64,000 bases of DNA. Source: Lama guanicoe (Eukaryota). Position 1 is the stretch's first letter, and each line of letters starts with the position of its first letter. Position numbers and translations under genes: made by a program. This document shows, in pieces, positions 5,438 through 57,254 of the stretch. The notes under the pieces were generated by a model that saw only the letters and a list, made by a program, of their open reading frames with translations, was not told the origin of the DNA and made no database searches. The stretch covers positions 2,862,508 to 2,926,507 of the forward strand of contig MU053588.1 of NCBI GenBank assembly GCA_013239625.1. The letters are read 5' to 3'.

Positions 5438-5830
<393 letters not shown>

Positions 5831-5840
5831 TGAGGCCTGA

Positions 5841-6098
<258 letters not shown>

Positions 6099-6151
6099 TG
6101 ACCTTTATTCCATTTCCACCCCTTCTCCCATAGTCCACCCCTCTCTCCTGA

Positions 6152-6583
<432 letters not shown>

Positions 6584-6956
6584 TGATTTAATTTGAGTGC
6601 AGTGTGAGGGTCCATCCAGAGTTGGTGCCCAGCCCTTAGCCCTGGTCATCAGGCCCCAGAGGCGTGCAGCCCAGGGTGGGCAGGTCAGACCCTGGTGTTG
6701 GGCAGTGCTTGCTTCCTGGCTCTGTCCTTGACTACATCATCCTGGGCACGTCCCTCCCCTTCTCTGTGCCTTGGTTTCCTCACCTCTGAGCTGCCGGCTT
6801 CTTAGGGCTGCTGAGAGGCTGAAATGACTCTGTACTCTTCAGTGCGGTGCCTGGGCCTGCTAAGGGTAGAGATGCTGGGATTTGGGATGTTAGGGTCACC
6901 ACTGTTATGACAGTTATCTCTATTGTCCAGATGGGAACACTTGGCTCAGGGGATAA

Positions 6957-7208
<252 letters not shown>

Positions 7209-7520
7209 GGCCGGTCGCCCCACCCGCCTCAACCACCCCAAGGGGCAGAGGGGACTGGAGGGACGCTACCCGTTCCCCACACAGCCCCCTCATAATACTC
7301 AGGCCAGGGCAGTACCGGGCGGCTCCTGCTCACCATCCCCGCGCCTACAGGCTGTTACATTGGTGGGGCCTCGTCAGCTCCCTCTCTGGCTTTTGTTACA
7401 GGGCCTTCTCTCAGGGGCTGGGCCAGGGCCCCTCGAGGACTGGAAGCCCCCTCTGGGCTAGGGGTGGATGTGGCAGCTCAGCCTGTGGGACTTAGAGTGT
7501 GAGGTGGCCATCAGGGAGTA

Positions 7521-7526
7521 AATAAA
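7521..7526 (+). terminator. BCKDHA polyadenylation signal
   Basis: AATAAA ~310 bp after the stop codon, followed by GT/CT-rich sequence. Confidence 0.75.
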
Positions 7527-8117
7527 CTGTCTCTCTGCCTTTGGCTCTGTGCCACCTCTGGTCTCCGTCTCCTGGAGTTTGGGACGTGGGAGGAGAGTCC
7601 AGCATGACTGGTTTGGGGCCACCCCCACTTTTCCACTTGAGATAAATGAAGCCTAGGCTGTTGAGCTATCTATTTCCTTTGGAAACTTCTGCAAGCTGGA
7701 GGGTCAGCTTCAGCAGACAGGTAGGGGTGGGGGACCTACGGAGATGGGCTCCTGTCTCCCATAGAACGGGGACAGGCTGGTGTCCAGCACAGTGACCAGA
7801 AGGCCATCGGGGCTGGCCTTGCCCAGTAAGGATGGCGAGGGTGTCTGGTGTGAAGGTCAGGGTACAGATGAGCTCTGCTCTGTAAAACCCCCTGGTACCC
7901 TTCAGATACAGGCGACTCCAGGCCTCAGGAGGGAAAGCATATTTTTAAAAAACAAAAAGACAGAAAGTCCGTTGCCTCTTGGGGAGGCCTCTGGCCTAGG
8001 GAGGCCCAGGAGGGGCTCGAGCAGGCTCCATTTCACACCGAGGACTGGAAGGAGAGGCTGAGCCAGGGGCCGGTGCCGAGGCCCAGGCCAGGTCTGCCCG
8101 CCCCTCCACGCCGAGGC

Positions 8118-9311
8118 TCAGCACTGGAGCTGAGGGTCCTGCAGCTGTTTCCAGAGCCGGATGCTGTCCTGGGGGCTGAGGGGCCGCACCAGCAGCAGGT
8201 CGCGGAAGGCACAGGGGTCAGCGGTGCGGTCCGCTGGCCAGGCCGTGAGGAAGCCTTTGTGGGTCCTGGGCGCCAGGCCCAGGGCTTGGAAGCACAGGCC
8301 TGTGTAGACGTCGTCAAAGGGGAAGGGGGCCACGCGGGCCGCTGCCTGCAGCAGCCAGGGTGCCAGGCGCCCGGCGATGACATAGCCGCCCCCGCTCGCG
8401 TAGGCCGGGTAGCTGCCTTCGAAGAAGGACCCAGGCACGTAGAAGGGTCCTCCAGGCTTCCGGAGGGGCTTGGCCTGGGTGAAGACCTCGCCCAGATAGA
8501 GGCCTCTGGCCCTGCTGGGCGGCAGGGCCCGCAGGTGGTCCAGCAGGGCAGGGATGTGTACGAAGGCGTCGTCCTGGGTTCGCAGGACGAAGCGCACACT
8601 GGGGCAGTGGTGGCCAAGCCAGGCCAGCAGCAGCAGGTCTTTGAGCGTCTGGTTGAAGGGGACGTCGAGGAAGTCCCAGAGCAGCAGGTCGCTGTAGCGG
8701 CGGCTCTCCCAGGCTGCCAGGGAGCCTAAGTCAGGCCCCCTCTTGCCTGCTGGGGACCCCAGCAGGAAGAGCAGCCGGACCCCCGGAGCCGGCCCGCCCC
8801 ACGTCTCCCTCACGGCCTGTCGTTCCGCGAAGCGCCCTGGTTCTGACTTGACGGCCAGTAGCAGGTAGGGGACGTCAGAATCCTTGCAGCTGGCCACTTG
8901 GCCGCCGCCACCCCCAGGCAGCCACCGTGGGAAGCTCCGGCAGGCTGCCGATAGCAAGAAGTGGCGGAGGTCCTCGGGGTAGGAGGTGAAGTCTGGGATC
9001 TCGGCAGCAGCAGCAGCCCCCCAGGCATTGCAGTCCCCCGCCTCAGTGCTGTCCCCGCTGGGCAGGGTCCCCAGCCGCCACTGCTGCTGGTTCCAGTAAG
9101 CCGTGGGCAGCGGTCCAGTTTGGCCCAGACGGGCTGAAAGGTTAGCCGGCAGGGTGGGCTCAGGGCAGGCTGGCGTGGGGCCTGGCGGGGTGCTGCGGGG
9201 TCCGGGGTAGGCCTTGCTAAGCCGAGGCTCCGACGTCCATTCGATGTACACTTTGAGGCCCAAGAGTGTGAGCAGTGCTGACAGGCAGAGGAGGCACTTG
9301 GGGCAGCGCAT
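8118..9311 (-). CDS. B3GNT8: Beta-1,3-N-acetylglucosaminyltransferase 8 (GT31), single coding exon, 397 aa
   Basis: ATG at 9311 gives MRCPKCLLCLSALLTLLGLKVYIEW (type II anchor). GT31 motifs LLLAVKS, RQAVRETWG, FNQTLKDLL, QDDAFV, YPAYASGGGY, FDDVYTGLC. Splice acceptor at 9344-9346. Synteny with BCKDHA. Confidence 0.96.
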   Translation of the reverse strand: MRCPKCLLCLSALLTLLGLKVYIEWTSEPRLSKAYPGPRSTPPGPTPACPEPTLPANLSARLGQTGPLPTAYWNQQQWRLGTLPSGDSTEAGDCNAWGAAAAAEIPDFTSYPEDLRHFLLSAACRSFPRWLPGGGGGQVASCKDSDVPYLLLAVKSEPGRFAERQAVRETWGGPAPGVRLLFLLGSPAGKRGPDLGSLAAWESRRYSDLLLWDFLDVPFNQTLKDLLLLAWLGHHCPSVRFVLRTQDDAFVHIPALLDHLRALPPSRARGLYLGEVFTQAKPLRKPGGPFYVPGSFFEGSYPAYASGGGYVIAGRLAPWLLQAAARVAPFPFDDVYTGLCFQALGLAPRTHKGFLTAWPADRTADPCAFRDLLLVRPLSPQDSIRLWKQLQDPQLQC

Positions 9312-12300
9312 GACCCGACCCAGCGAAGGGGCAGCTGTGGGAGCTGCAAAGGAACCACAGAGGCCTTTGGGGTGCAGGGATGAGCCTTCCAGCCCCTGCC
9401 AACCCCAGTAAGGCTTCTCACAGTCCCAGACCCTAAACCAGCCCTCCACCAAGGACTTTCCCCTCTTCCTGGACTTGCGGATCCCTGCTCCCATTCCAAT
9501 ACCCTGCTCTTCCACCATCAGCCCAGTTCCTTCCACCTTCCTAGAAACTCAGGAGGCTGCCTCTTCCTCAACCCCATCCCCACCCTAGAGACTGGTACTC
9601 CGCCCTTCCAACCTTCTCCCACCAGTTCATCCCCCTTACCGGGAGTCAGGATCACAGGGTCCCCTCCTTCCACCTTCGTGGAAACCAGAAACCAGCCTCC
9701 CTCTACCGCCCAAGTCCTCACCCCAGGCGCTGCTCTGTCTTTACCTCCGGGTCCGGCTCCCGCCAGCTCCAGCGCCCTGGGCCTCTGGTCCGGCCCTCCC
9801 TGCCGCCTCCCCTGCCCTCGTCCTGGAGCTACTGCCCTTGTTCTCCAGCCCAGCCGGTCGGCGGGGCGGGGAGGGGAGCTAGAGGCTGGGAGGGCCCCAG
9901 GGGCCGGGAGGGGCTGGGGCGGGGCTGAGGGAGGAGGGGAGAGGGAACGGGGAGGAGGGCAGGAGGGCAGGAGGCCAACCTGAGAGATGGGGCTCTGACG
10001 TGTTAGGGCTGGTTTTCTGGTGAGACAGCGGGAAAGGTGCCGGGGTGGCTGCAGAGACTGACGGGGGGCCAGCAGGCCGGGGAGGGGAGAACCAGGGGCC
10101 CGGGAGAGAGCCCGTGGGAGGCTGAGGCTGAGGGCTGGTGGAGCCATGGGCTGAGGGCCCGGGGACAGAGAGAGTCCTAAAGTGGCAGCGCCTGGCCGGG
10201 GGTGGAGGGCGGGGCAGAGGTGAATGTGCTGAGAGGGCACGGGTGGCCCTGCCAGTGGTAGGGGGTGTCGTCATCGGCCCTCCCCCCCAGTCAGGGTGGG
10301 GGTTGGGAAGGGGGCTGGGGAGGAGGAGGAGAGACAGGCAGAGATAGACAGTGCAGAGAAGAGACAGCCAGGGAGAGGCAAAGAGGACTTGGGGAGGCAA
10401 AGAGGAAAGAGCTGCCAGGAGAGGAGATGGGAAAGTGGAGTCGGAGGAGGGGGGAAATGGAGACAGCGAGAGAAAAGAGAAGCCCCTGTTGGGGAGGGTA
10501 GAAAGGGACATGAGGAGAGGCAGGTGGAGGGACGCAGGGTGGGGGAAAGAGCCTCAGTCAGGGAGAGGCCGAGAAGGGAGCCAGAGCTGCCAGGAGTGGG
10601 GCAGATGGAAGGGGTGGGTGGAGCATGAGCCAGGCTAGAGGGCAGTGAAGGGTGATGGGTGGAGGCACCAGGAGCCCTGGAGCTAAGCTGACCCCTGCAC
10701 CTCCTCTGTCCCCTTGGGTGCCTGGGCTGCCTGCCCAGTGGGGCGGGAATCCCTCACTCCAGCCCCGGCCCTGTCTCCAGCTGCACCATGACTCCAGGAA
10801 CACTCACATCCGGCCCCCTGGGAAGGGAGAGAGTGTCTGCCTGTGTTTACATCCCTGCCCTCCAGAGGCCCCTGCTATTGGGGCTGCATCAGCTGTCTGG
10901 GGAGGCAGGCAGGGGGGCCTCCTCATTCCAGACCTCCTGGGGTGGGGCAGAAGGCCCCTCAGCGAGCCTGGCCTGACACCCTTCACCCCACCCAGGCTGG
11001 GGACTGCCGATCATCTCAGCAGCAGCAGCAGCAGTTGATTATCCATCCAGCACTGATTCCCTCCCTGCCAGGTTTGAATAATGGAGCCCATGGGACCAGC
11101 TGGGGGAAGTGAGTGCAGAGGAGGTGGGAAATACTGATGGAATAAAAGCTAGAATGGGCTGGGGTCAGGGCCCTGAGCATCCCTGGAAGGGGCCTTCAAG
11201 CCTCCCCCAGACCAGGATGGGGGTCCAGGCCCCCTAACTCTCTGCTCATCTAGCAGAGCAGAGAACCTCCCAGGGCGTGGAGGTTCTTCGATCTGGGCAG
11301 CTGCCCCTCCTGGGAGCGGTGGGAAGTCTCGAAGCAGAGGGTTTTGGTTGCTGTGTGCATCAGTCTGCAGACACCCAATGAGGAGAGAGAAACCACCCAG
11401 CAACTGTAACAGGTACAGTCGAATTTCAAGAATGAAGAGGTGCCTTGTGGAGCATGGTTGAGGGGGATGTGCAGGTAGAACATGGTGAACACAACCCAGC
11501 ATTCCTGCCTCCCGAGCCTTCAGGTCCCTCTCCAGATGATGCTGGGGCAGTTCTGGCTTCTCGCCTGCCTTAGGGATTGTAGGTCACTGTTGAGTCCAAA
11601 TTCCAGTCACCCAACCTAGAAGAGCTGTCAGGACTGCCCCCAGCTGCACTAGCTAACCCGTTACATGTAGATCTAGTACTAAAGTGCCCTCCTGCCAGTG
11701 AACTGGGCCCCAGCCAGTGAGATCTGCCCTCACTGGCTAACACCCCGAGGACCCACTCCTGCACAGGTTCCCCAGGGTTCTGACACTACATGTTTGCAAG
11801 TCTTCCCCTTTTCGTGTCAAAGCTGTTGCCTTCGGGTCATAGTGAGCACCTGTCCCCTGGAGTGCGCCGAGACTTGACCCTTGGTATTTCTGGGTCTAGT
11901 GACAGCAGCAGGCACTTGTGAAAGTCTTAAGAGCAGTCACCCTTTCCAGGGCGTCTGCCCCAGGAGAGGTCAGCACAGGGCTTCCAGGGCAGGGATCCCC
12001 GGTGGTCTCAGACACTGGCAACAGGGGGCTTGCAGTGACCAGGGGGTTCGAGAATCTGATTCTTTTGGGCCCAACCAGATGACCTGATTCCAAATTTCTG
12101 GGTCCCACTGTTTACCAGTCAGTGTCCTTACTTTTACATGAGAAACTTCTTAAGACTGGGAAGTCAGCTGTTGCACCTTAGCAGCTTACAAACTTCTGTG
12201 GAAAAAGCACATTTACCGGCCCTGGAGCTAAAAGTAAGAAAGAACTGTGGTGGGGGCTGTCATGAGGGCTTTCCAGTTCTGAGACAGTGACCTGAGCTGG

Positions 12301-14980: not shown

Positions 14981-15110
14981 GGGGGGAAGGCAGAGCGCAT
15001 ACCTAGCACGCATGAAGTTCTGGGTTCAATCCCCAGTACCTCCATTAAAAATAAATAAATAAATAAAGCTACCTCCCCCAAAACAAAAACATATATAATA
15101 AAATATTTAA
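14981..15110 (+). mobile_element. tRNA-derived SINE (Vic-1-like), A-box region partly deleted
   Basis: GGGTTCAATCCCCAGTACCTCCATTAAAAATAAATAAAT core shared with the copies at 2229 and 35475. Confidence 0.8.
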
Positions 15111-21403: not shown

Positions 21404-22217
21404 GTGGGGTAGGTCTCAGCTGAGAGATCTGTTTTGACCATATTCACCTTGAGATGGCTGAGACGTCCAGGTGGAGATGCTGAGTAAAGGTCTGGGGGTC
21501 AGGACTAGAGTCAGAGACGGGGGAGCCATTGACATATAGGCGGAATTTTCACACCCCTGAAAGAGGGGTTCTAGCTGAGGGTGGCCCACAGTGCATCCTG
21601 ACCTTCTCCGTGGCAGGGCCCAAGACGCTAGTGATAAAGACCGCAGGCAAGTCTAGGGTGGGCGGAACTGGCTGCTCAGCTGTGGGCCAGCAGCCTGGAC
21701 ACCGAGGCACTGCAGCTGAGGAATCGTTCTCTTGGAAGCCACTTCTGGCTCCTCAGGCCCACGGATCAGGGAGCTGTGGGAGGGCCGGAGTGGAGAATAC
21801 AGGTAAAAACCCAGCAGGAGGAAGCCAGAGGTCAAGTGGAGAAGGCTGCAGGGGAGGCTGGGGAAGGAGCAGTGGGAGGGACCCAGGAGGGGGCGGAAAG
21901 GATGAGGCAGCGCATCCACACACCCGGTGAGGGGTCCTGCCTGAGAAGAGTCAGGGACAGTGGTGTCTGATCTCCGCCAAAGGGGCTGTGGTTGGATTCT
22001 TAAGAACAGAGTTTAAGTTAAACTTCAGCATGAAAAACAAACAAAAAAACCAAAACCCACACGAGGCTGCTGATTCTCAGGGGAAAATGGACTTTGGGAT
22101 GCCCAGCCCCCTCCCCCACCCCTACTGCCCTTTACTCCCCTCCCCCCAGCTCCCTGGGGGACTGGGTCACTCTGGACCTTGCTACTTCCTGCTCTTGGCT
22201 GTCACTACCCAAAGACT

Positions 22218-22391
22218 ATGGAGCTGTGGAAGCAGCTGAGGCAGGCTGGACTGGTGCCTCCGGGGCTGGGCCCACCTCCCCGGGCCCTGAGCGGGTTCCC
22301 CCCAGTGGAGAAGGTGGGTCAGACCCTCATGTTCCCAGGGGCTGACACTGGAAGTGCCAGGGAGAGTCTGCTGTGGATCTGGGAGGAGCTG
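22218..22391 (+). CDS. ERICH4: Glutamate-rich protein 4, exon 1
   Basis: ATG...GAGCTG|gtgagt. Translates MELWKQLRQAGLVPPGLGPPPRALSGFPPVEKVGQTLMFPGADTGSARESLLWIWEEL. Synteny with DMAC2. Confidence 0.92.
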
Positions 22392-22479
22392 GTGAGTGAG
22401 GGGTTTGGAGGGGCAAGAGATGGAGGTGGAGAGAATGGATGATTGATGGGGAATGTATGGAAATAAAAAGGCCACAGAT

Positions 22480-35000: not shown

Positions 35001-36070
35001 GATCCAACAGATCCAGTGGTACCTGGAGTGGCAGTGGCAGAGAGGGTTGCTGTCTGGAACATTTGGTGGATCACAGGCCCTTAGGATTTTGGAGCAAAAC
35101 CCTCTATCCTCCACAGGTAACTCTTCTCCTTTTGAGAAACAGCTCTTGGCCTCCTACTGCGCCTTAGCAGAGACTGAACCCTTGACCGTGGGCCACCAAG
35201 TTACCATATGATCTGAGCTGCCCGTCTTGGACTGGCTGTTATCTTACCCACCAAGCCATACAGTTGGGTGTGCACACCAATATTTCAGCATCAAATGGAA
35301 GTGGTACATACCTGATTGGGTCCAAGCAGGCCCTGAAGGCATAAGTAAGTTACATGAAGATGTGGCCCAAATGACGATGGCCTCCACTCCTGCCTTCTCT
35401 CTCCCAGCCTGCAGCTACAGTCTTACAGGGAGTTTCCTATAATCAGTTGGCTGAGGAAGAGAAGACTCAGCTGGGGGTGGGGATAGCTCAGTGGTAGAGC
35501 ACATGCCTAGCATGCACGAGGTCCTGGGTTCAATCCCCAGTACCTCTATTAAAAAATAAATAAACCTAATTACCACCCCTTCAACAACAACAAAAAGACT
35601 TGGCTGGTTTACAGATGCTCCTGCACGATACTCAAGTGCAAGCATTTACCAAGTGGGCAGCTGCAGTTCTACAGCTCCTTCTGGTGCATCCCTGAAGGCC
35701 AGTGGTGAAGAGATTTCGCTCAGTGGGCAGAACGTCAGGCAGTGCATCTGGTGCTTCACTTTTCTTGGGAGGAGAAATGGCCAGGTGTGTGATCATATAC
35801 TGACTCATGGACTGTGGTTTGGCTGGATGATCAGGGACTTGGAAGGAACATGATTGGTGATAAAATTGGGGGAAAAGTTATGTGGATAGACCTCTTTCAT
35901 TGGAGAAAAAAAATGAAGATATTTGTGTCTCATGTAAATGCTCACCAAAGGGCGACTCAACAGAGAAGGATTTTAATTTTCAAGCAGATAAGATGAGCCA
36001 TTCTGTGCATAACACTCAGCCTCTCCCCAGCCATCCCTGTCATTGCCCAAATGTCTCATACACAAAGTGG
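32010..36070 (+). mobile_element. ERVL internal region (gag-pro-pol), heavily degenerate
   Basis: ERVL leader gattttggt...gtggttctagaggaacag; gag GVWDGGGRNPKLDGAEFIDVG; protease-like LWDIGSELTFIP; RT WRMTVDY and LVRYIDDML; RNase H WFTD. No long ORF. Confidence 0.88.
35475..35594 (+). mobile_element. tRNA-derived SINE (Vic-1-like) inserted in ERVL pol
   Basis: GATAGCTCAGTGGTAGAGCAC...GGGTTCAATCCCC. TSD AAGACT(CA/TG)GCTGG at 35462-35474 and 35595-35607. Confidence 0.88.
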
Positions 36071-39840: not shown

Positions 39841-40092
39841 ACTGTGGTGCAATTCAATTCTGATGTTGACTACCTGGAATTAGTGCAGACCTCACAGGCT
39901 AAGGACAGGTTCTTCCACGAGACCACCTTCACATTAAGTGCTAGCCCCACATTTGATGTCCCCATGCCACCCATACTTCTAATCAACTTGCTGCAAATTC
40001 AGAGGATCCCATAACACCCTCAGATTGGATATTTTGCTAGAATGACTAAATAAACTCAGGAAAATGCTATTTATGCTTCATAGTATTGTAGC

Positions 40093-40547
40093 TGTCAGCG
40101 GCACAGTATCTGCACAAACACCATGCAGAGTCAAGCGAAGCAGTTCTCTGTTTATTGATTCTTAGAGAAGGATTTATATAGAACATGCATGCTGCCTCAC
40201 ATATCATCTAAGTTATAACAATGTTAATAATCTTAAGCTAGTTAGGTTCCCAGGCTCTAGGTTCCCAGACTCCTGCAGTAAGCACAGGATGTTACATGAT
40301 CAAGGACAGACTGTTTTAAAGTTCGTCACGAAACTTCATTAAATAGGCCATCTCTCATCCAGCCGGCTGTGCCTGTCTGAGGTGGTCCTCCTCTGAGGAT
40401 CTCACCCGTCGATGGCTATCCAGCTGTCCAGACTGGATACGTTAGGTAGGCCATCTCTTATCCAGCCGGCTACGTGACATTTCTCACAACTTGTTTATCA
40501 GTTCAGCCCATAGCTTATTCTCTAGAGCCTTCAGGTGGGGGCCTACA
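40093..40547 (-). repeat. 3' LTR of the class II ERV
   Basis: TG...CA termini, preceded on - by the PPT AATAATAAAAAGAGGGAATA. TATATAAA at 40173-40180 and AATAAA at 40151-40156. Confidence 0.92.
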
Positions 40548-42330
40548 TATTCCCTCTTTTTATTATTAAAAGAAAGGAAACAATCCTGTTGCGCAGAAGC
40601 AAGCAATCCCATCATAACAAGAGTTTGTTGTAGAGCTTCCTGTTGCTTACGTAAATTACATCTCCATTTTAAAAGATATAACAAGGCAATACAGATCAAT
40701 ATAAGCATGCCGATATGAATAAAAATGCGTAAATTAAGCCCATTAAACCAATTTTCAGGCTTAAGCCAATGCAACCCGTTTTCAATTTGCTCAAATACAT
40801 TTTGTGCAAAAGCATCATGGATATTATGTAATTGAGTCTCCAACTGATCTTGTAAAGAGTTAATATGTTCTCTCAAAAAATCATTAAATGTTCCTTGTAA
40901 ATGTTGTCTAATCTTATACCATGGTGTCTCTGTTTCATTATATTGAATAAGAGTTACACATTACATAGAGAATTTCCAGTCACATTTTAATTTTAATCTT
41001 TTTGATAATGCTTCTTGTTGTTCTCCAATCCATTCTACAGCAGCCTCAAGAGCCTGTAGTCTAGCCATGATTCCATGATCTATGTCAACCTGTGTTTGTA
41101 GCTCTTAAGTTACATTAGTCAAAAGCTTTTCAACTGTATGGGCAGTATTAATAGAGGATACTAGAGCTGTTGAAGCAGCTGTGGCCATGGCAATTATGAT
41201 TGCAGCCGATATAATAAAAGCAATGAATGTAGCTACAAATCTTTTTGGCCTAACTTTCTTGAAAGACTCTAATAGCACATATAAACTTTGCTCATTAGAC
41301 CAGGTTCTGATCAGGGTAACTGGTAGTCAGACATGAGTTCATCGTTTTAGTAGCATAAGATACATTATAGTCACTAATATTTTTATGCATCAAACAATCA
41401 GAATACCAGAAAGAAGGAAATAAATTGGTGATATAAATATGGTCAGTAGTAATATTAGGAGGGAAGGGACCCCAAACTAAAATGTAAGGATGTGTAGTGC
41501 AAAACATTACAGAATCAGAAACATTGGTAATTAATGACATAGAATAATTGCCTGACCCACTAACATAGTCCCCATGATAAAGAATTCTGTCAATAAAAGG
41601 TAGTCCGAGTCTCCAAATGGTCTTGTGCATAGGACTAAAAATAGTGTCGCCATCAGACAGTTGTAAAGTGGGTCCGGAAAGTCCATGTTCACTCCAAGTA
41701 ATTGGTGCTGAAGAATTTTGTCCAAACTGAAGAGACATGTTATTACTTAACAAATGTCCATGGGGTCCCCGATCCGAGAGAGTTCCATTGAACGAGGAGC
41801 TATAACGAGGACACTGTATCTGGCAGGGTGACCATTGAACAGAATAAAACTTATACTTTCAATCGGTTTTCGGTTTACACATGGGGACAGGTGGTACTTG
41901 TGATACATTCAGAATTTCATAAGTAGTAGTTGATACAGCTGTAATAAAAGTTAAGTTGGCTGCTTGATTTCCCTTCTTAGGTTGATAATACAAGTACAAT
42001 TGCTTCTGTAGATTAATACAATCAGTATGTGACTTATTATATACAATACATAAAGGTGGATTATGAGAATATAGTGTCAACGTTTGGTTGCTGCCCAGAT
42101 ATTCTTGCGTTGCCACGGGAGGTATCCATGTGCCACCTGTCCAAGCAGAATCATTAGAAGCAAGTGGGGGTCTGCATGCCACCACGTAACAGGTGTGAAT
42201 AAAGGAGGGTTAAGAATATAAGCCCAATAAGACATATTAGATTCCCCAGAAATTAGAGACGTGTAGTATGCAAAATGATAAAAAATTAAGATCCTTATCC
42301 ATCTTTTGAAGTGGTGACCACATAGATATA
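40484..42330 (-). pseudogene. env: Betaretroviral env, disrupted
   Basis: SU start YWAYILNPPLFTPVTW; furin site KVRPKR followed by FVATFIAFIISAAIIIAM; RLQALEAAVEWIGEQQ and CDW; TM helix IFIHIGMLILICIALLYLL. Stops and frameshifts present. Confidence 0.88.
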
Positions 42331-44880
42331 CTTCTGTGGTATCCATCATAGCTCGTGACCTGTATCAACACATAGAACACCTCTCTTCCAGCATTTAACC
42401 TGATAAGGGCCTTCCCAATCATCAGTAAATGGCTTTTTCACCCAAACTCTATCTGGGCCACCTATCACAGGAGGATTAGCATGTCTCTCTTGAGTGGTGT
42501 GAGCATCTTTTCCTTGATTTTAAAAATTAAGTGTATATAATGTGTGTGCTAGGATGTTATGACATTCTTGGGGAGTATATCTCCCCTTTAAGTTTTGCAA
42601 GTAAGCCTTAAGTGTCCTGTGACAATGTTCCACTATAGCTTGTTCAGTGGAATTATAAGGCATTCCAAAAGAATGTTGTATTTGCCAATTAGAGCAAAAT
42701 TGTTCGATAATCCTTGCAGTAAATTCTGAGCTGTTTTCTGTTTTTATAGTATGAGGTTTTCCAAGGACAGCAAAAGCAGACAGCCAATGTTTAATAACTT
42801 CTTTAGCTGTACATTTAATATGTAAAGTAGCCCAGATGAATAAAGAATAAATGTCAGCAGAAACAAGTATAATTTTAAGGCACCAAAAGGGAGGGAAAAA
42901 AGTAGTATCTGTTTGCTAAACCTGATTTTTGCTAGATCTTCGAGGATTAACACCTTTATGTATACGGTAAGGACATGAAAGGGTATGTATGTTACATTGA
43001 GGGCAAGCAGCAATAATTTGTTGAGCCTCTCGTTTTGTGATGGGATAAATGGCTTTTAAGGCAGCGACATTACAGTGATGCATTTCATGAAATATCTGTG
43101 CTTTCTGAAAAGAAGAGAGATTGGTAGCTAACATAGAAACAATAGAATCTATGTAAGTATCTCCTTCTGTAAGTGGACCCAGAAGATTAGTATGAGAACG
43201 AATATGAGCAATAAATAATGGGTGTTGCCATTGAAAGATTAATCCTTTTATGTTTAGAAAATGCTGAAAATGTTGTTTTAAAGGTGCTTTAGGTGAAACA
43301 GCAGAAGGAATTAAGGGTATAGCATTGGCAACATGTAATGAGTCAGTTAATATATTTAATGGTTGAGAAGGCCAAGTCATTAATGCCAACTCAATAGCTG
43401 CAACTTCAGCTATTTGAGTACTAGCATGGCCAGTTGTGAATTTTGAGCACCATTGACCTTCATTCATCCATGCAGTAGCGGCTTTTGTGGTTTTTCCAGA
43501 GCCATCAGTAAAAACAGTTAAGGCTTTGGGTATAGGAGTTATGAGAAATAAGTTCTGGGAATTGTAAAGGAATCTGAATACAAAATTGTAGCGAGGGATG
43601 GGAGAATTTTTTGAAAGTAATCTTTCCAAGAAAATCATCCAAGGACAATTGTATTTCTTCATTTATTATAAAATTATCCAGAAATTGTTGGGAAGTACAT
43701 GGAAGATTAACAGAGTGTGGATCTTCTCCTATTAATTTTTGCAAACAACGTTGACGTTCTTTCATAATTAACTGGGCTGTCATGTCAAATTTAGTTGGGG
43801 AGACTTAAGAGGCTTATGAGAGAGAGAGATACATTCTAATAGAAATAATTGAGAACCTAATTCTTGAGCCAACACAGCAGTAGGAGACAAAGGGTAAAAA
43901 ACATGAGCAAAATAATAGGTAAAGATAAAGAGATTCTAAGTAAAAATTGCTGATAAATAGCTCTAGCAATTGTTTCTAATTCCATAAAATCTTCTGATGT
44001 AAGGACTCAAATAGATGCAGGATCTCTATCTCCTTCAAGCAAAGAAAATAAAGTATGCAATTGTGATGTGGGTATTCCTAAACATGGGCAGATCCAACTT
44101 ATGTGGTCTAATAATTGTTGTAATTGGACTAGAGGCATTTGTTTGTTTACCTGAATTACAAACGGATGTTGATGAATAGTATGTGTGTCAATGGTCATTC
44201 CTAAAAACTCCCCAGGAGCCTGTTTTTGTACTTTATCTTGGGCAATAAGCAAACCATTAGCTTGAAGAGTCATAAGTGTTCTGGTTTATAATTCTTTTAA
44301 TATGGTATCTGTTTAAGCAGCTAATAAAATACCATCCATATAATGAAAAATAATGCATTGAGGGAACATATGCTGGGTAGGTGCTAAAATGCCACCAACT
44401 AATTGTTGACAAATTGTAGGACTATTTTTCATCCCCTGAGGTAGATATTTCCATTGATAGTGCAATGGTATTTCCTGATTATTATAAATTGGGGCAGTAA
44501 ATGCAAATTTTTCTTTATCATCAGGATGTAAAGGTAAAGAGAAAAGTCTTTTATATCAATGATATATAAAGGTCATTTTTCTGGACTTAAGTCAGGGTTA
44601 GGCAAGCCCTTTTGTAAGGGGCCCATAGCTTGTGTAACAGCATTCACTGCTCTTAAGTCTTGTAAGAAGCGCCATTTCCCAGATTTTTTCTTAATAACAA
44701 AAACAGGTGTGTTCCAAGGACTGGTAGATGGTTCCAAATGACCCAGCTTTAATTGCTCATCAACTAATTGCTTTAAAGCTTGTAATTTTTCTTTAGGAAG
44801 GGGCCACTGCTCTACCCATACAGGAGATTGCTGGGTCCAAGTGAGCGCAAAGGGTGTTATTCCTAACAATGGTTCAATGG
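42330..44880 (-). pseudogene. pol: pol (RT-RNase H-integrase), disrupted
   Basis: [47 protein letters not shown], catalytic motif decayed to YMDG, TVFTDGSG, HHCC finger (HEMHH..CPQC). Confidence 0.92.
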
Positions 44881-44886
44881 CCCATA

Positions 44887-45620
44887 TTAAAAAGGATCAA
44901 AGTTAAGTGTTAAGTTCCATTGAGTCAATAAATCTCTTCCCCATAATGTGTAGGGAATGGGTAAAATAAATGGAGTAACACTTGCCACTTTGTTTTCTGG
45001 CCCCTTAACTCTCAACGAATGAGCACTGATCTCTGGGGCCATAAGGCCCCACACCTTGAACATTAGCATTAGAAGATCCTTAGGCCATAAAGTAGGCCAT
45101 TGATGAGAAGCAATAATAGTTTTATCTGCTCCTGTATCTATCAAACCACTAAATTTTATCCCTTGTAAAGAAATAGTTAATGAAGGACGTTGTCCAGACA
45201 TTTCATGTGACCAAAAGGCAGCTTGACCAGAGTGTCCAAATCCAGAAGCCTGTCTCTCTTTTGATAAAGTTTTTTCAGCAGGTAAGTAAGGAATCAAGAT
45301 AATCTGAGCAATCCGAGAATTTTTTGGTATAATATAATAAGAGGAGGCTTGAACCATAATTTTTATTTCCCGTGTATAATCATTGTCAATAACTCCAGGC
45401 AAAATAGTCAATCCTTTGAGCCCTACAGAGGAACGTCCAATTCAGAGGCTGAAATATCCTGCAGGTAAGGGCCCATAAACTCCAGCAGGTATCAAGTAAG
45501 TTTTTGAATTATCATCTAACAACTCATCATTAATGGTAGCTAAATTGAGTCCTGCATTCCCTGGGGAGGCGGCAATAAGGTCGGTAATTGAGTATTGGGG
45601 CTTGAGCTGATTGCTCCCCA
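44887..45620 (-). pseudogene. pro: dUTPase + protease (pro), disrupted
   Basis: GRSSVGLKGLTILPGVIDNDYTREIK (dUTPase); LIDTGADKTII and LWGRDLL (aspartic protease). Confidence 0.92.
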
Positions 45621-45660
45621 TACTTGTTTTTGGTGGGCACCTGGAGGAGGGGTGCCCCGT

Positions 45661-47212
45661 TTAGTTACCCGATGATTTTCTGCTTATCATGTTACTATTA
45701 ACGTTACTTTTAGATTTGCATTGATTAGCCCAATGGTATCTGCGGCGGAACCAGGGACATATTTTTGCAGGTTGTTTTCGAGGTTTATCTCCTTTACAAT
45801 ATTCGGCTATATGACCTGGTTTTTGGCATTTAAAACAGGCTAAGGGTGGTTTAGCATTATTGGACTGCTGGGAGAAAGCGGCAGCCATAATACGGACAGC
45901 GTGAGTTTGTGTCCCTACTTCCTGACAAGCTTTTATCAGCTCCCCTAAATTATGATTACGACTTTGCAAATGAGCCATAGCAGCCTGACAGTCAGCATTT
46001 GCATTTTCAAAGGCACACTTTAATAATAATATTTGAGCAGCCCCAGGATTAGGTATTTGTCACTCAATGGCAACTTGTAGGCGAGCAATAAACTCAATAT
46101 AAGGTTCAGCAATGCCTTGTTTTATGTTCACAAAAGAATTAATGGCCCGATCCTTAGTGGATGGTGGGATAGCCTTCCAAGCTGCAAGGGCAAGCTCAGA
46201 GCTTTGACATGGTAATAGTGCATGAGCTTGGCATTGAGCATTAGGCGTTGCATATTGTCCAGTTCCTTGTAACATGTCAGCACTGATTGGTATATTCTGA
46301 GTTAAATTATAGATTTAGTAACAGCCAAATCATTATATTCAGACTTCCATAAAACATATTTGGCATGACTTAATAAGGTCTTAGCCAATATACTCCAATC
46401 ATAAGGAATCATACGGTAACTTCCTCCTAATGCTTCTATCATACCCACAGTAAAGGGAGATTGAATGCCATTCTCTCAAATACTTTTCTTCAATTCCTTA
46501 TAAACAGTGAAAGGCAATAAATCATGAATACATTGACCATTTTGAACAATAACAGGGGAAGCTCTATGTATAGCATCAGCATCTCCTTTCAAAAGTCCTT
46601 CCCTCAAGCACCCATGCATTAAACTGTGACAAGATGGATCCTCAAAGGCAGGGGCATTAACAATAGGTGGAAAAGTAATTTTTTGTTTATCTTTCTGACC
46701 AGAACTCAAAGGAGGAAGAAAAACCTCTTCTGAGTCTGAATCTGAATCAAAAGATATTCCCGAAGGTGAAGTCTCCTCTGCAGGCTGCTTTATAGGTTCC
46801 CCAGCCGATGGCCCCCCCCGGGGGGGGGTGGCTGTAGCGGCAGAGGAGGTAATTTATCCTCTGGAGGGGCTGATGACTCCAAAGTGTTAGCCACAGCATT
46901 GTGATTAATGGGAGTATTCGTAGTAGAAACATCCTTAGTATATAATGGCCATAAGGCCGTTCTAATTATCCCTCACGTCATTATTAAATGTACATCAGTT
47001 AAGAGTTTGAATTCAGTTTTTAAAACATGTCCAGCTTGTTCCCATAACTCTAAATCTAGGGTGCCTTCCTCCGGAAACCACAGGCAGTGTTGAGCAACGG
47101 CCAATAATAAATTTTGGAGCTCCGTAGGAGAAACCGAAACTGATACTGCTTTAAGCAGCTGTTGTAAAGTCCGAAAGAACAGCTGCTGCTGCTTAGTAAG
47201 CTGTTGCCCCTT
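45661..47212 (-). pseudogene. gag: Betaretroviral gag, disrupted; start codon apparently ATG>AAG
   Basis: (K)GQQLTK...CLWFPEEGTLDLELW matrix; MHR IKQGIAEPYIEFIARL; two zinc knuckles (CFKCQKPGHIAEYC and a degenerate CPWFRRRYHWANQC). Confidence 0.9.
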
Positions 47213-47293
47213 GAGTATCCCTCAGCACGCCTGACAGGCTGAAAAGTCCCCCAAAATTTCCTTAGTTCCATTTACGTGTTTGCCGAGTCTGAT

Positions 47294-47311
47294 ATCACAT
47301 CGGAGTCACCA
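47294..47311 (-). other. Primer binding site, tRNA-Trp type
   Basis: TGGTGACTCCGATGTGAT, 2 nt inside the 5' LTR; 16/18 match to the recalled tRNA-Trp PBS TGGTGACCCCGACGTGAT. Confidence 0.85.
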
Positions 47312-47313
47312 TC

Positions 47314-47775
47314 TGTGACGTGATATGTACACACAAACACCGTGTGAAGAGAAGCGAAGCAGTTCTCTGCATATTGATTCTTAGAGAAGGATTTATATAG
47401 GATATGCATGGTGCTTCACATATCATCTAAGTTATAACAATGTTAATAATCAAGCTAGTTAGGTTCCCAGGCTCCAGGTTCCCAGGCTCCAGGTTCCCAG
47501 GCTCCTGCAGTAAGCACAGGATGTTACATGATCAAGGACTGTTTTAAAGGTCATCACAAAACTTCCTTAAGTAAGCCATCTCTCATCCAGCCAGCTGTGC
47601 CTGTCTGAGGTTGTCCTCCTCTGAGGATCTTACCTGTCGTTGGCTATCCAGCCATCCAGACTGGAGACATTAAATAGGCCATCTCTTATCCAGCCAGCTA
47701 CGTGACATTTCTCACAGCTTGTTTATCAGTTCAGCCCATGGCTTATTCTCTAGAGCCTTCAGGTGGAGGCCTACA
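47314..47775 (-). repeat. 5' LTR of the class II ERV
   Basis: Homologous to 40093-40547, roughly 30 substitutions by eye. Three versus two copies of AGGTTCCCAGGCTCC. Confidence 0.92.
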
Positions 47776-48250
47776 GTACCAGCAAAAAGGAGAGATGCTA
47801 GGTCAAAGACAGGGTAGGTTCCACACGCAAGCTCCTCTGTGGAGTCAGGACACAGCGCCCACATCAGGCACACTGAGGTGTTCACCACCCAGGAAGCTCA
47901 TCGGATCACTGGTGTCCAGAGTGTTCACTTAGGTTTTATTACATTGGCAGGTGTGATTGAAACATGGGTTGTGATACTGAACTCACTCTCTAGCACAATT
48001 TCCACCCCCAGATGACAGGGTTGTTTATTTGGATGACCAGCCACTCAATTCCATGCCGAGCTATATCGCCAGAATGAACTCAGAAGAAATCTAGGAACTC
48101 CTGATCACCAAAGACAGGCTTACCATTTGAAAAATTTCAGCATCAGCGGCAGTGATTTCACAGATACTTCATTACATCAAACTGAAGTCCGCAGCTCTGG
48201 CATCTCTACTATATTTAACGTGACACTCATTTGTTCTAAGAGGCAGTACT

Positions 48251-48422
48251 TCCTCAGGACTCACTTCCAGAATTCCACCTTTGAAACCTCCCCATCCCCT
48301 AAGCCCCATCTGGGCTCACCTTGTTCCCTCCTGCCCCCAGGGCGCTGTCCTTTCTGCTGCTCAGGGGTTCCTTCTAGATCTGGCCCTTCCCCTGCTCTGA
48401 GCCTGGCTGGAGAGTCACCCCA
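48251..48422 (+). repeat. 172-bp direct duplication, copy 1
   Basis: Identical by eye to 50227-50398. Confidence 0.92.
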
Positions 48423-49040: not shown

Positions 49041-50226
49041 TGAAGGGAGTTAGGAACACACAGGTGCAAACCTCCAGACACACAGGAGTCCCAGGGACAT
49101 CTGAAGATCAGGGGGTCAAGAAAGGGCACAGGAAGCCAGGTGAAGAGGGAGATTGCAATCCCCTGGGGTGAGAGACCCAGAGAATGAGCGGGGAATGGAG
49201 GCCGTCAGGACACCGCAGGAGACAGGAGACTTGAGCTGAGGGTGTGGGAGATTCAGAAAAGGAAGGGATTTGAGTGTGGGGGTGTCAGAAGAGGGTTTCT
49301 GGACTCCAGCCTGGGGGAAAGTGAGAGAGGCCAGTGAAGGGCAGGCTTGGGGTGGAGACTAGAGGCTTAGAAGACAGTTCCCAGTGGGAGGGCCACGATC
49401 CAGCTAGGACCAGGTTGAGAAGGACAGGGCTGTTCTCAGAGCGCGTCTGGGGGTGCCATTCAGCATCTGGGGAAGCGCAGCACAAAAGCTGATGTCGATC
49501 TTGGGTGTGAAAGACGACCCTTGGCCGAGTTTGCCTTGTGCTGAGATGTGTGAGTAAGCCAAACTGTGACCACAGTGGAGGCTGAAAAGGAAGCAGGGCC
49601 CAGGAAAGGGGAGGGGTGGGGGAGGGGGAGGGCATCAAGGGCAGAAGAGTTTAGAGCACGGGATGGGTTTAGGGTTGGGATTGTGGGGCGTGGGAGGGCA
49701 GGAAATCGAGGAGGCAGGAGACTGTAGTGTGCAGAGCCCAGAAGGATCTAGAAAAGCAGAAGAGCCAGGAGGGGTTTGAGGGGAGGGGATGTAGAGAGGG
49801 TCACTGCCCTGGAGGATGGGTGGTGAAAGTCAGGCTGAGGAATAACTCTGCGGGGGGTTGCATGCTTGTACACTTTGATTTCTTCACTGAAAATGAGGCC
49901 TCCGTCACATCCAGTGCTCTTTGGACCGTCAGCCTCACGGCCGGCTTAGGAAGCACAGAGCTTGTTGGAGTCCACACCCTTCCCCTCTGAGGTCTGTCTT
50001 CTGATGGCTCCTCCATGGCCCAGAGCTTCTATTTTCCTCTGTTCTGATCACATTCTGTCTCTTGAAGACTTCCGCCCGGGCCCTGTTCATCCCTGATCTC
50101 TCTTCAAGGCCACCATTTCTCCCCTGGCCCCTCCACTCAGATCAGGAAATGTCCTCCTCAAACTCCCAGTTCTGTACTTACAGCAGCGCCCCTGCTCCCC
50201 ACACTGAGGCGGAGGTTTCCAGTGCC

Positions 50227-50398
50227 TCCTCAGGACTCACTTCCAGAATTCCACCTTTGAAACCTCCCCATCCCCTAAGCCCCATCTGGGCTCACCTTGT
50301 TCCCTCCTGCCCCCAGGGCGCTGTCCTTTCTGCTGCTCAGGGGTTCCTTCTAGATCTGGCCCTTCCCCTGCTCTGAGCCTGGCTGGAGAGTCACCCCA
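50227..50398 (+). repeat. 172-bp direct duplication, copy 2
   Basis: Identical by eye to 48251-48422. Confidence 0.92.
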
Positions 50399-51912: not shown

Positions 51913-53808
51913 TCATTTCTCTTGGCGGGTGTTTTTCATGTAAGGGTCTCTGAAGTAGATTATTGCCTGGAATTTAGTGAGCAAGTCCCTTCCCAGTGAA
52001 GGAGATGGGGCACTCAGGCACCAGCAGAAACTGATATGGAAAAGTAAATTTCCTAGTAAGCACTTGGTTTGGGGCTTTCTGTTGATCTCCACTATTATAC
52101 AGGATTGAGAGGACAAGGGTCCAGGGAAATCAGTCAGCACAGAGTAAGTGGCCCCTGTATTTACTAAGAAAATAACTTTTTTTGCCTGCCACATCAAGGG
52201 TTACCCGAGGCTCCTTTGGAGAAATAACCAGGTGTCCTTTGGGACCCAGGAAGGGTCTCTGGCCCCATCGGTCTTCATTCATCTAGGCCATCACTGGTTT
52301 GGGAGCCTCAAGCCCCCTTCGGGACTGGGGGCAGTCCCGCTTCCAGTGGCCTTTTTGTTCGCATATTGAGCAGGGTCCTGGTGGACTTTTTCCAAACATG
52401 GGGCATTCATTTTTCCAGTGGCCCTCCTGGCTGAACTTAAAACAGGTCCCTTTTAGGTGAGACAGTGGCTCTGATCCAGGCATCCTGGATCCTGTCCTCA
52501 CCATGGGTCTTCATAAAGGAGGGTAACCCTGAGGTGGCACAGGGGTTAGGGCTGCCACTAAGAATTGTGCCTTTTGATGCTGTCCCTGAATCCTTCTTGC
52601 CTATTGAACCCCGTCTCTATTGTTAAATACTCCAAACGCCAGATCCATGAGATGATTCATGGGGGTCTGGGTCCCACAGCTGCCTTTTGTAATTTTCTCC
52701 TAATGTCTGGGGCCGACTGAGTGACAAAATGGGTATTTACCAGGACTTCCCCCTTAGGGGTTTTGGGGTTAATATTAGTATGCTTTCTAAAGGCCTCCAC
52801 TAAGCAGCCCTGGAAGAGGGCTGGATTCTCATCTTTTTCCTGTGTTACTTCTCTGACTTTGTCATAGCTGATGGGCTTAACAACACACTTTTTCATCCCC
52901 TCTATGAGGTACGTTACCATATGGTTTCTGTGTTCAAGCCCTCTACCTCCCTGTTGGTAGTTCCAGTGGGGACTCTTGGTCAGGGATTGCTTCCCCCAGG
53001 GTAAGGTAGATTATATGTCCCTAATTGTAGGTAGTCAATTCTTTGGCATACACCTGGGCTGCACTAAGGAGCTGGCTTTTTTCCTCAAAAGTGCAGCAGG
53101 TTGAAAGGAGGACCTGTAGGTCCCTCCAGGTGAGCTCATAGCCATTGTCAGCCTGGTAAATTCCTCCATGAAGCTACTGGCATCCTTGGAGAAACATACA
53201 AATTTCTCCTTGCAAGTAGCCAAATCAGTCATGGAAAAGGGGACGTGAACTCTAATAGTTCCTCCATCACCAGCTGGCACTTCCCTAAGGGGCAGTTTGG
53301 TAGCAGGAGGTTGGTAGGTGGCCTCACTTTGAATAGTACCAGCAGGACTGTCCTCCGGTGATGGAGGTGGTGGGGAAGACTGTCCCCCTCAGAGCTGGGG
53401 GGCGTGGGTGTTCCCAGATGTGGACCCTGGGGAGCTAGACCCATAAGGGGGTCATCTAGAACATTGAGCTCCTGTCGGGGGAGACACTTGGAGGGGATAT
53501 GAGCCAGGTATACCCGGCAGGAGTTCCTTAGACCTGGATCTTGGGATAGGGTCAGGAACACTTGGACATATGGGATTTCCCCATTTACCTCCTCTTTTAT
53601 ACAACAGGTTTAACTGCAAGATGGTATTGTAATTTAATGACCCATATTTTGCCCAGACCTCTTGGTCCCCTAGTTTGTATAGTGGCCATGCAGCATTGCA
53701 AAGGAAAATTATTTTCTTTTTCCCCCAGCTATCCTGCTTAAACTTTTCCCAATTAATTAATATGTATCCTGATGGGGAGCCCTTTGGGATACTTGTAGTT
53801 ATCCCCAT
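51913..53808 (-). pseudogene. gag: Class I ERV gag-pro, frameshifted
   Basis: MGITTSIPKGSP..ILINWEKF..IIFLCNAAWPLY..GSLNYNTILQL; VHVPFSMTDL; MHR VTQEKDENPALFQGCL; FVTQSAPDIRRKLQK; two zinc-knuckle-like motifs. Confidence 0.88.
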
Positions 53809-54143
53809 TTTGGTTAGGATGTTTTTGTCCTTGAGCCTGAGGTGGCTCCTTTGGACTAGTCAAGCAAAGGATCAAGGGCCAGTGGGAGAAAAGGTGGCCA
53901 GAGTCCCAGGGCCTAAATCCTTCAGAGGCAAGGAGGAGACCTAGGTCCTGAGTCAACTAAGCAGATTAACTTCTGCGAAAGAGGGGAGACAAATAGCTTC
54001 AAGAGGTAGAAATCCAGGATGAAAAAGGAATGCTGTAGTTATGGCGCTTCCTAGACCAGAGATCCATAGGCCCACTGAGGGAGTACTCACCTCCCTCAGC
54101 GGTGACGTCCACTCAGTGATGTAATGAAACCGGGGCTCCAAGA

Positions 54144-55634
54144 GGGGTGCTTAGACCATCAACCCGCGAAGGGAGTGCTCACCTGTGACTCCCACTTAGG
54201 GGTGCTTAGACCATCGACCCCTGAAGGGAGTGCTCGCCTGCGACTCCCACTTAGGGGTGCTTAGACCATCGACCCCTGAAGGGAGTGCTCGCCTGCGACT
54301 CCCACTTAGGGGTGCTTAGACCATCGACCCCTGAAGGGAGTGCTCGCCTGCGACTCCCACTTAGGGGTGCTTAGACCATCGACCCCTGAAGGGAGTGCTC
54401 GCCTGCGACTCCCACTTAGGGGTGCTTAGACCATCGACCCCTGAAGGGAGTGCTCGCCTGCGACTCCCACTTAGGGGTGCTTAGACCATCGACCCCTGAA
54501 GGGAGTGCTCGCCTGCGACTCCCACTTAGGGGTGCTTAGACCATCGACCCCTGAAGGGAGTGCTCGCCTGCGACTCCCACTTAGGGGTGCTTAGACCATC
54601 GACCCCTGAAGGGAGTGCTCGCCTGCGACTCCCACTTAGGGGTGCTTAGACCATCGACCCCTGAAGGGAGTGCTCGCCTGCGACTCCCACTTAGGGGTGC
54701 TTAGACCATCGACCCCTGAAGGGAGTGCTCGCCTGCGACTCCCACTTAGGGGTGCTTAGACCATCGACCCCTGAAGGGAGTGCTCGCCTGCGACTCCCAC
54801 TTAGGGGTGCTTAGACCATCGACCCCTGAAGGGAGTGCTCGCCTGCGACTCCCACTTAGGGGTGCTTAGACCATCGACCCCTGAAGGGAGTGCTCGCCTG
54901 CGACTCCCACTTAGGGGTGCTTAGACCATCGACCCCTGAAGGGAGTGCTCGCCTGCGACTCCCACTTAGGGGTGCTTAGACCATCGACCCCTGAAGGGAG
55001 TGCTCGCCTGCGACTCCCACTTAGGGGTGCTTAGACCATCGACCCCTGAAGGGAGTGCTCGCCTGCGACTCCCACTTAGGGGTGCTTAGACCATCGACCC
55101 CTGAAGGGAGTGCTCGCCTGCGACTCCCACTTAGGGGTGCTTAGACCATCGACCCCTGAAGGGAGTGCTCGCCTGCGACTCCCACTTAGGGGTGCTTAGA
55201 CCATCGACCCCTGAAGGGAGTGCTCGCCTGCGACTCCCACTTAGGGGTGCTTAGACCATCGACCCCTGAAGGGAGTGCTCGCCTGCGACTCCCACTTAGG
55301 GGTGCTTAGACCATCGACCCCTGAAGGGAGTGCTCGCCTGCGACTCCCACTTAGGGGTGCTTAGACCATCGACCCCTGAAGGGAGTGCTCGCCTGCGACT
55401 CCCACTTAGGGGTGCTTAGACCATCGACCCCTGAAGGGAGTGCTCGCCTGCGACTCCCACTTAGGGGTGCTTAGACCATCGACCCCTGAAGGGAGTGCTC
55501 GCCTGCGACTCCCACTTAGGGGTGCTTAGACCATCGACCCCTGAAGGGAGTGCTCGCCTGCGACTCCCACTTAGAGGTGCTTAGACCATCGACCCGGAAA
55601 TGAGTGCTCACCTGCGTCTCCTACTTAGAGGTGC
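54144..55634. repeat. 55-bp tandem repeat, ~27 copies, in the ERV leader
   Basis: Unit GGGGTGCTTAGACCATCGACCCCTGAAGGGAGTGCTCGCCTGCGACTCCCACTTA. TTAGACCATC recurs every 55 nt from 54151 to 55581. Confidence 0.97.
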
Positions 55635-56580: not shown

Positions 56581-56895
56581 TTATACCATCATCACTTCTG
56601 CCGGTTGGCGACCCATCATCTTTTTAAAGACATATATGATCTTATTTTTTAAGCAATTCATGTCCAACTGGTTCTGTGCCACCGAAGCTATCTTGTCTAC
56701 TACAAATATCAGTGTCTTTTTGATTAGGTACATAAGCAACCATTTTAAGATCAAGATTGGCTTTATCATATCATATCCATTTATCATTAATTTATCTTTT
56801 ACAAATTTCCATACCTCCTCTGTGAGTAATTCAGCCACCATACTTGTTAAACTTTCCACGGCCTTGTCCTTGATGAATAAAATAAGCGAATCCAT
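56581..56895 (-). CDS. Uncharacterised intronless 104-aa helical ORF (candidate gene, retrogene or EVE)
   Basis: ttcaccATGG Kozak context; MDSLILFIKDKAVESLTSMVAELLTEEVWKF...GRQPAEVMMV*. Open despite AT-rich composition; I do not recognise it as a repeat. Confidence 0.5.
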   Translation of the reverse strand: MDSLILFIKDKAVESLTSMVAELLTEEVWKFVKDKLMINGYDMIKPILILKWLLMYLIKKTLIFVVDKIASVAQNQLDMNCLKNKIIYVFKKMMGRQPAEVMMV

Positions 56896-57254
56896 GGTGA
56901 AAACGTGAGGAGGTCTTCTGGTTGTATGAGTGCAAGTTCTGAATTTACTCCTTTTACGGAAGACACGGGGCATGCGCATTCCACAGAGGAGTGGCCAATG
57001 ATCATGCGACACATTATGGGGCAACACTTGACATATAAGGTTAGTTTCCTCTCACTTGTTTGACGGCCATGATGACTAGTCATAAATGCCTAAATATTGC
57101 GATGCAATGGGCCCTCCTTCCTGCAGTATTGGGGAAGTAGCACCCAGTACAGGAGCAACCAACCTCTCAACACCAACTAGTACCCAGGAGGGGAAGTGGA
57201 CAGTGTCTTCAAAAGGCTTCATATATTAAGCAGAATTTGAAGTTGTTTTAATGC

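Follow-up and report, generated by a model that had tools for sequence, protein, structure and literature searches.

A decayed class II endogenous retrovirus of the guanaco with a tRNA-Trp-type primer binding site

Betaretroviruses carry, as a rule, a primer binding site (PBS) for tRNA-Lys1,2 or tRNA-Lys3 (PMC3621094, excerpt), and alpharetroviruses use a W primer (Table S1 of PMC3482500, excerpt). What, then, should be made of a mammalian provirus with betaretrovirus-like genes and a Trp-type PBS? The question is raised by a 7,683-bp provirus on the minus strand (47775-40093) of a 64,000-nt stretch of guanaco DNA, here called the window, whose coordinates are used throughout. An earlier note on this sequence had seen in it a poorly described camelid class II lineage. 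We think it probable that the locus is a defective class II endogenous retrovirus (ERV) with a tRNA-Trp-primed ancestor, that Trp was inherited from a bird/reptile-type radiation, and that an arm in U5 complementary to the PBS is a one-off.

Anatomy, copies and primer binding site

The class II layout is complete (LTR-PBS-gag-pro-pol-env-PPT-LTR), with TG...CA ends and a candidate target site duplication (TSD) that agrees at 4/5 letters (Table 1). An alternative 3' LTR end at 40111, also with a 4/5 TSD, was dropped because other copies continue like 40112-40093. Retroviral Pfam families were found in 11 of the 20 provirus fragments scanned, namely Gag_p10, Gag_p24, two zinc-knuckle families, dUTPase, protease, RT, thumb, RNase H, integrase and GP41. 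The dUTPase (PF00692, E 1e-13) stands ahead of RVP, pol begins in the -1 frame relative to pro, and the gag/pro junction has decayed. The Pfam scan found no G-patch (PF01585) in 44890-45441, with the control, L007, positive, and the SU fragment had no match in Pfam or Atlas. The closest solved structure to the TM is a HERV-K TM. The best PDB matches were 7sr6 for the polymerase (163 bits vs 68 for HIV-1 RT) and 3jca for the integrase, which we take to be HERV-K and MMTV, respectively. With beta-type Pfam domains in all four genes, the betaretrovirus-like character of gag, pro-dUTPase, pol and env proposed in the earlier note is confirmed.

Table 1. Features of the provirus, in window coordinates
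Feature	Position	Strand	Remarks
Candidate 5-bp TSD, 5' copy	47776..47780	-	4/5 letters as in 3' copy
5' LTR (TG...CA)	47314..47775	-	TATA at about 47399; poly(A) signal decayed
Outer U5-leader stem, U5 arm	47332..47340	-	in both LTRs; probably a family feature
10-nt U5 arm, complement of PBS 3' half	47317..47326	-	unique to this 5' LTR
PBS, Trp type	47294..47311	-	two C-to-T changes (47304, 47299) vs alpharetrovirus-type Trp PBS
Outer U5-leader stem, leader arm	47276..47283	-	
gag, with stops and frameshifts	45664..47221	-	Gag_p10 46976-47221; Gag_p24 N part 46063-46475, C part 45664-46059; two zinc-knuckle matches
pro	44890..45660	-	dUTPase, then aspartyl protease; no G-patch; one internal stop
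pol	42349..44896	-	RT, thumb, RNase H, integrase; several stops and frameshifts; RT catalytic motif degenerate
env, broken	40550..42364	-	presumed SU by position; beta-type TM 40550-41326
Polypurine tract	40548..40567	-	precedes 3' LTR
3' LTR	40093..40547	-	AATAAA intact (40156); last 20 nt unlike 5' tip, like other copies
Candidate 5-bp TSD, 3' copy	40088..40092	-	

The two LTRs align with 397 matches, 30 mismatches (10 of them CpG-type) and 25 gap columns (K2P 0.074). With rates assumed to lie between 1.5 and 3 x 10^-9 per site per year, as in PMC5682256, this divergence would make the provirus roughly 12-25 million years old. Every gene is broken by stops or frameshifts. We conclude that the provirus is fixed and fully defective, without coding capacity and with no sign of co-option.

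Contigs from four sequencing runs (X1, X2, X5 and X11) were aligned to positions 46950-47950. In all four, a contig with one to three differences covers both the PBS and the U5 tip; the locus is therefore common to four organisms and correctly assembled, and an assembly artefact at the PBS or U5 tip is ruled out. Contig depth in the LTR bins exceeds that of the flank by a factor of hundreds to thousands, while in the PBS bin it is 1-5. The contrast suggests numerous solo LTRs but few internal copies, although summed contig depth does not equal copy number and the figure of about a thousand LTRs should be read as an order of magnitude. A 23-nt LTR pattern matched no locus in metagenome contigs. 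Three exact copies of a 15-nt unit stand in the 5' LTR (47461-47505) and fewer in the 3' LTR; contig depth falls steeply in the bin of this repeat, which suggests that most other copies differ there.

The PBS, TGGTGACTCCGATGTGAT (minus strand, 47311-47294), lies past the 5' LTR end (...CACA, CA at 47314) after a 2-nt spacer. It has two mismatches to the Trp-type PBS at all nine loci found with the Trp pattern and 10/18 to both Lys types (14 beta- and lentivirus-like loci), a typing by comparison with PBSs read from virus records. For Lys3, the PBS sequence is given in PMC3185775 (excerpt). The whole window holds one site within three mismatches of the Trp PBS; the shuffle mean was 0.02, with a match in 2 of 100 shuffles. 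The 18-mer is presumably complementary to mammalian tRNA-Trp. Both differences are C-to-T changes that still allow G-U pairing, and one is at a CpG; we read them as decay after integration. At 47304, the one of the two differing positions that falls within the 40 of 158 rows listed, the Trp base is present in all six paralogous contigs that cover it (one from X1, four from X2, one from X5, none from X11). The Trp-type PBS two nucleotides inside the 5' LTR is thus as first described. On this sequence evidence, the infectious ancestor would have used host tRNA-Trp, bound to the 18-nt PBS that begins two bases past U5, to start minus-strand synthesis.

A tandem array at 54143-55634 (27.1 copies of a 55-bp unit, 99% identity) lies just upstream, on the minus strand, of class I gag fragments (Gag_MA 53452-53856, Gag_p30 52660-53010); it has the look of a leader repeat, homogenised only recently, that belongs to an older gamma-like ERV. 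Between the two ERVs, a 179-nt direct repeat (48244-48422 and 50220-50398) recurs at 99% identity, 1,976 nt apart. A tRNA-Ala-derived SINE, presumably of the camelid Vic-1 type, occurs three times in the window (35474-35590, 2272-2366 and 14989-15059), one copy being called tRNA-Ala by ARAGORN; these copies make a camelid host plausible. Host gene pieces at 3530-9548 and 22074-22439 (E1_dh, Galactosyl_T, DUF4530) belong, we assume, to the BCKDHA, B3GNT8 and ERICH4 region. A stop-free frame of 156 codons (56584-57051, minus strand) had no Pfam match.

Complementarity between U5 and the PBS

That the adjacent U5 can pair with the 3' half of the PBS, another point of the earlier note, is borne out: the 10 nt of ATATCACGTC (47326-47317) are complementary to GATGTGATAT (47301-47292), one of the pairs being G-U. 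Complementarity of this length was reached by 0.18% of 20,000 shuffles of the tip (frequency 0.0018), and the U5:PBS duplex is more stable with the 5' U5 end than with the 3' one (-23.7 vs -16.2 kcal/mol). Such pairing could indicate that U5 co-evolved with the Trp PBS, as had been proposed, and that a U5:PBS hairpin is a functional feature of the family that regulates primer annealing. Counter to this, the two LTRs of a provirus start out identical, from one U5, yet the 3' LTR tip has only 5 nt of complementarity to the PBS. The tips (last 18-20 nt) agree at 12 of 21 columns, compared with 397 of 427 ungapped columns elsewhere. Nor is the folded region more stable than its shuffles in any of three stretches (z -1.03, -0.07 and -0.29).

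The other copies point the same way. Loose contig ends at 47328 resemble the 3' LTR tip in all four runs (15/18 letters, by eye). Five of the six PBS-bearing paralogous contigs cease matching at 47316, where the tips diverge (three are listed pieces and two were inferred from depth); the pieces that end there come from X1, X2 and X5. One contig from X2 crosses the U5 tip with 10 gap letters in total. In bin 47290-47323, the expected depths in the four runs (23.5, 18.9, 147.0 and 10.8) match those observed (23.5, 18.9, 147.1 and 10.8). Because the counted contigs alone account for this depth, there is no room for solo LTRs with a 5'-type tip. In X11, positions 47317-47323 are covered by the orthologous contig alone, while LTR bins are about a thousandfold deeper. 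As neither the 3' LTR of the same provirus nor other copies carry it, the 10-nt arm is specific to the locus, not a feature of the family. With other carriers excluded by the depth arithmetic, co-adaptation of U5 to a Trp PBS is already largely refuted, and we give it hardly any credence.

How, then, did the arm arise? It is the exact reverse complement of the 3' half of an unchanged Trp PBS plus two leader bases. Most likely, this one-off change in the 5' LTR was a short template switch at a quasi-palindrome, which would have yielded a reverse copy of the PBS before the PBS decayed. The switch may have taken place while the plus strand was being made, or else later, in the germ line, as judged from this one locus. 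Alternatively, the 5' tip could have come about through point mutations and short deletions, some of them at CpG sites, and resemble the PBS by chance. Arguing for this case, the tip contains CpG sites, a third of the LTR-LTR mismatches are CpG-type, and the arm is partly shared with other copies. Set against it are the 9 of 21 tip columns that differ, compared with 7% elsewhere, and the exactness of the outcome, which reproduces the unchanged PBS and the two leader bases beyond it. We regard a chance origin as doubtful, though a conceivable competitor of the template switch.

A second pairing differs in its distribution. The outer stem between U5 and the leader (8-9 bp) forms with either LTR end, and is likely a family-level structure. 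The lesson of the locus is that a U5:PBS hairpin seen in a single provirus needs checking against that provirus's own 3' LTR.

Relatives of the provirus and the source of its primer

A Trp primer in class II ERVs is uncommon and already known in primates and birds. ERV-Hako/HakoP, a primate group II ERV (Frith 2025, PMC11905727, excerpt), is primed by tRNA-Trp and has TSDs of 5-6 bp, a case which that paper terms remarkable. The excerpt of PMC4724089 describes two class II chains on the human X with an exact Trp PBS. The avian avibeta1e (Bolisetty 2012, PMC3482500, excerpt) has a K or W PBS, two zinc fingers and a dUTPase in Pro without a G-patch; Table S1 of the same excerpt gives alpha and alphabeta ERVs as lacking dUTPase. 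The paradox implied by the earlier note, an alpha-type primer on a betaretrovirus, finds no support in view of the published Trp priming of ERV-Hako and avibeta1e and of trees that, at moderate support, put the provirus outside the Lys-primed betaretroviruses.

Pol trees were computed on subsets of 45 rows (15 near-duplicates and short-match rows dropped), 26 rows and 30 rows, drawn from a set without HERV-K Pol, Hako and EqERV-u1. The provirus falls within an ingroup that is separated from lentivirus-like rows with support of 100. Its sisters are four reptile-type rows (snake, turtle and lizard ERVs and the unnamed P0014), with SH-aLRT 88 in the 45-row tree and values of 83/88 (26 rows) and 81/74 (30 rows). 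The wider bird/reptile/alpha group that contains it has support of 94 (45 rows) and 85/90 (26 rows). In the 30-row tree the MMTV-, JSRV- and MPMV-like loci belong to an 11-row group from which the provirus is excluded (85/96), and the Pro tree splits likewise (85/94). No IQ-TREE tree makes it sister to ALV/EAV-type rows. None of the Pol branches that place it is starred in any tree, and its end branch is long (0.77-1.08). A first FastTree placement with two bird rows was set aside (support 0.32). We interpret these sequence trees to indicate, with moderate support, that the provirus is nearer to reptile and bird ERVs than to MMTV, JSRV and MPMV.

The provirus could instead be a true mammalian beta-like ERV, similar to HML elements or Hako, that moved from Lys to Trp independently and whose affinity to reptile rows is long-branch attraction. 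HML-5 and IAP have shifted to other tRNAs. AU tests do not reject a grouping with mammalian betaretroviruses (p 0.10 in the 26-row Pol tree; 0.098 and 0.073), nor one with the alpha-type L011 and P0188 (p 0.38, 26-row tree). The dUTPase, MA p10 and TM are of beta type; BLAST scores place every gene nearer to betaretrovirus loci than to the alpharetrovirus locus, and the TM is of HERV-K/JSRV type. PBS use is moreover termed unstable (PMC4724089, excerpt), and Hako itself is a mammalian Trp-primed group II ERV of similar size (PMC11905727, excerpt): its LTR measures 401 bp, its interior 7,085 bp and its TSD 5-6 bp, compared with 455-462 bp, about 6.77 kb and a 5-bp candidate here. Hako differs, by description only, in being simian, in having about 47 human LTR copies and in carrying pieces of host 3' UTR. 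Against an independent move from Lys, four Pol trees and one Pro tree place the provirus outside the Lys-primed betaretroviruses, constrained trees that join it to the mammalian ones are 9-36 log-likelihood units worse, and it has no G-patch. The G-patch is not universal in betaretroviruses, as MMTV is without it. We consider this alternative unlikely. The Trp primer was most likely inherited from the wide class II radiation of bird/reptile type that lies between alpha- and betaretroviruses and in which a Trp PBS and a dUTPase occur together, with no switch away from Lys inside Betaretrovirus.

Neither named genus accommodates the provirus well. It shares with Betaretrovirus the gag-pro-pol-env order, MA p10, two zinc knuckles, a dUTPase at the start of pro, pol at -1 to pro and a beta-type TM, but differs from it in its PBS and lies outside that group in all trees, a separation not significant by AU. 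Outside the N-terminal part of RT, Pol fragments of L001, L002 and L007, which from their gene content we take to be MMTV-, JSRV- and MPMV-like, are 34-41% identical to it. With the ALV-like L011 it shares the Trp PBS 2 nt past the CA of U5, but it has a dUTPase, unlike alpharetroviruses, whose protease moreover lies in frame with gag; in the comparison with L011 the TM gave no match, and BLAST scores are lower in all genes. Lacking the Lys PBS of Betaretrovirus and carrying the dUTPase that is missing from Alpharetrovirus, the provirus is best filed among Trp-primed class II ERVs.

A search of metagenome contigs with the Trp-PBS pattern yielded 85 loci, most of them without a retroviral match and none close to the provirus (best, L081, 68% over 523 nt of RT). 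L057 (with L052) and L081 are two distinct non-alpha class II elements with a Trp-type PBS and a dUTPase-protease without G-patch. Like avibeta1e, they demonstrate that the two can go together. These avian systems differ from the provirus in their bird hosts, assigned for L057 and L081 from tree position only. They are not its sisters: their RT and RNase H-integrase fragments are 32-37% identical to it, and a short N-terminal part of the L081 RT 65%. In L057 (893-5116), gag, dUTPase, protease, RT, RNase H and integrase form one open frame of 1,408 codons without frameshifts, which is unusual among beta-like elements. Most of the 85 loci (L026-L110) have no class II match and several have weak RT matches; most are therefore probably Trp-primed LTR retrotransposons. 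In L026, L070, L092 and L093 the 3' half of the PBS is repeated directly after it.

Protein searches found no close Pol among the 9, 4 and 150 matches listed (at most 44% over long stretches); the best of these were 43-44% identical for the RT core and 40-41% for RNase H-integrase. The nearest protein found was P0213, a Logan dUTPase-protease without a name, which is 64% identical to this Pro. Among the 30 of 163 matched proteins traced to clusters, many of them nameless, there was no named Equus protein. We found no literature on the primer sites of camelid ERVs; no Trp family is listed in PMC5682256, PMC4133949 has no passage on PBS, Trp or camelids, and the excerpts of PMC8931336 and PMC8298818 hold nothing further on Trp-primed class II ERVs. 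Of the earlier description as a poorly described camelid class II lineage, the poor representation stands (Pol about 43% at best), and a camelid host is plausible. The provirus belongs to a divergent lineage, probably of camelids and apparently with many LTR copies, that was not found in the literature searched; its newness is judged against that literature, and Repbase or Dfam may well list an LTR family of such high copy number already.

A possible wider lineage in ungulates

EqERV-u1, a class II lineage of horses, lies between alpha and beta, has a dUTPase, entered more than 18 Mya and is described as unique to Equidae (abstract of PMC5046194); it was active 1-5 Mya and has intact genomes (same source, excerpt). 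The provirus resembles it in being an ungulate class II element with a dUTPase and, with moderate support from our trees, an intermediate alpha/beta position. It differs, in a comparison by description only, in being decayed and in lying outside Equidae. EqERV-u1 is also said, in work attributed to Zhu (2018, J Virol), to have a Trp PBS and to group with bird/reptile ERVs. We should therefore consider, as a speculative and on balance doubtful possibility, that the provirus is the camelid arm of a Trp-primed class II lineage of bird/reptile origin that crossed into mammals, with EqERV-u1 and perhaps primate Hako as sisters.

If this were true, 'unique to Equidae' would be overturned, and the lineage would have spread across orders among Miocene North American ungulates, which shared a range. 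Trp would be the ancestral primer of a clade intermediate between alpha and beta, and the Logan protein P0213 would be a second member of the lineage. A second, apparently high-copy Trp-primed class II lineage in another order of mammals is a useful data point on the origin of the alpha-type primer, and the provirus matters more if it is sister to EqERV-u1 or Hako.
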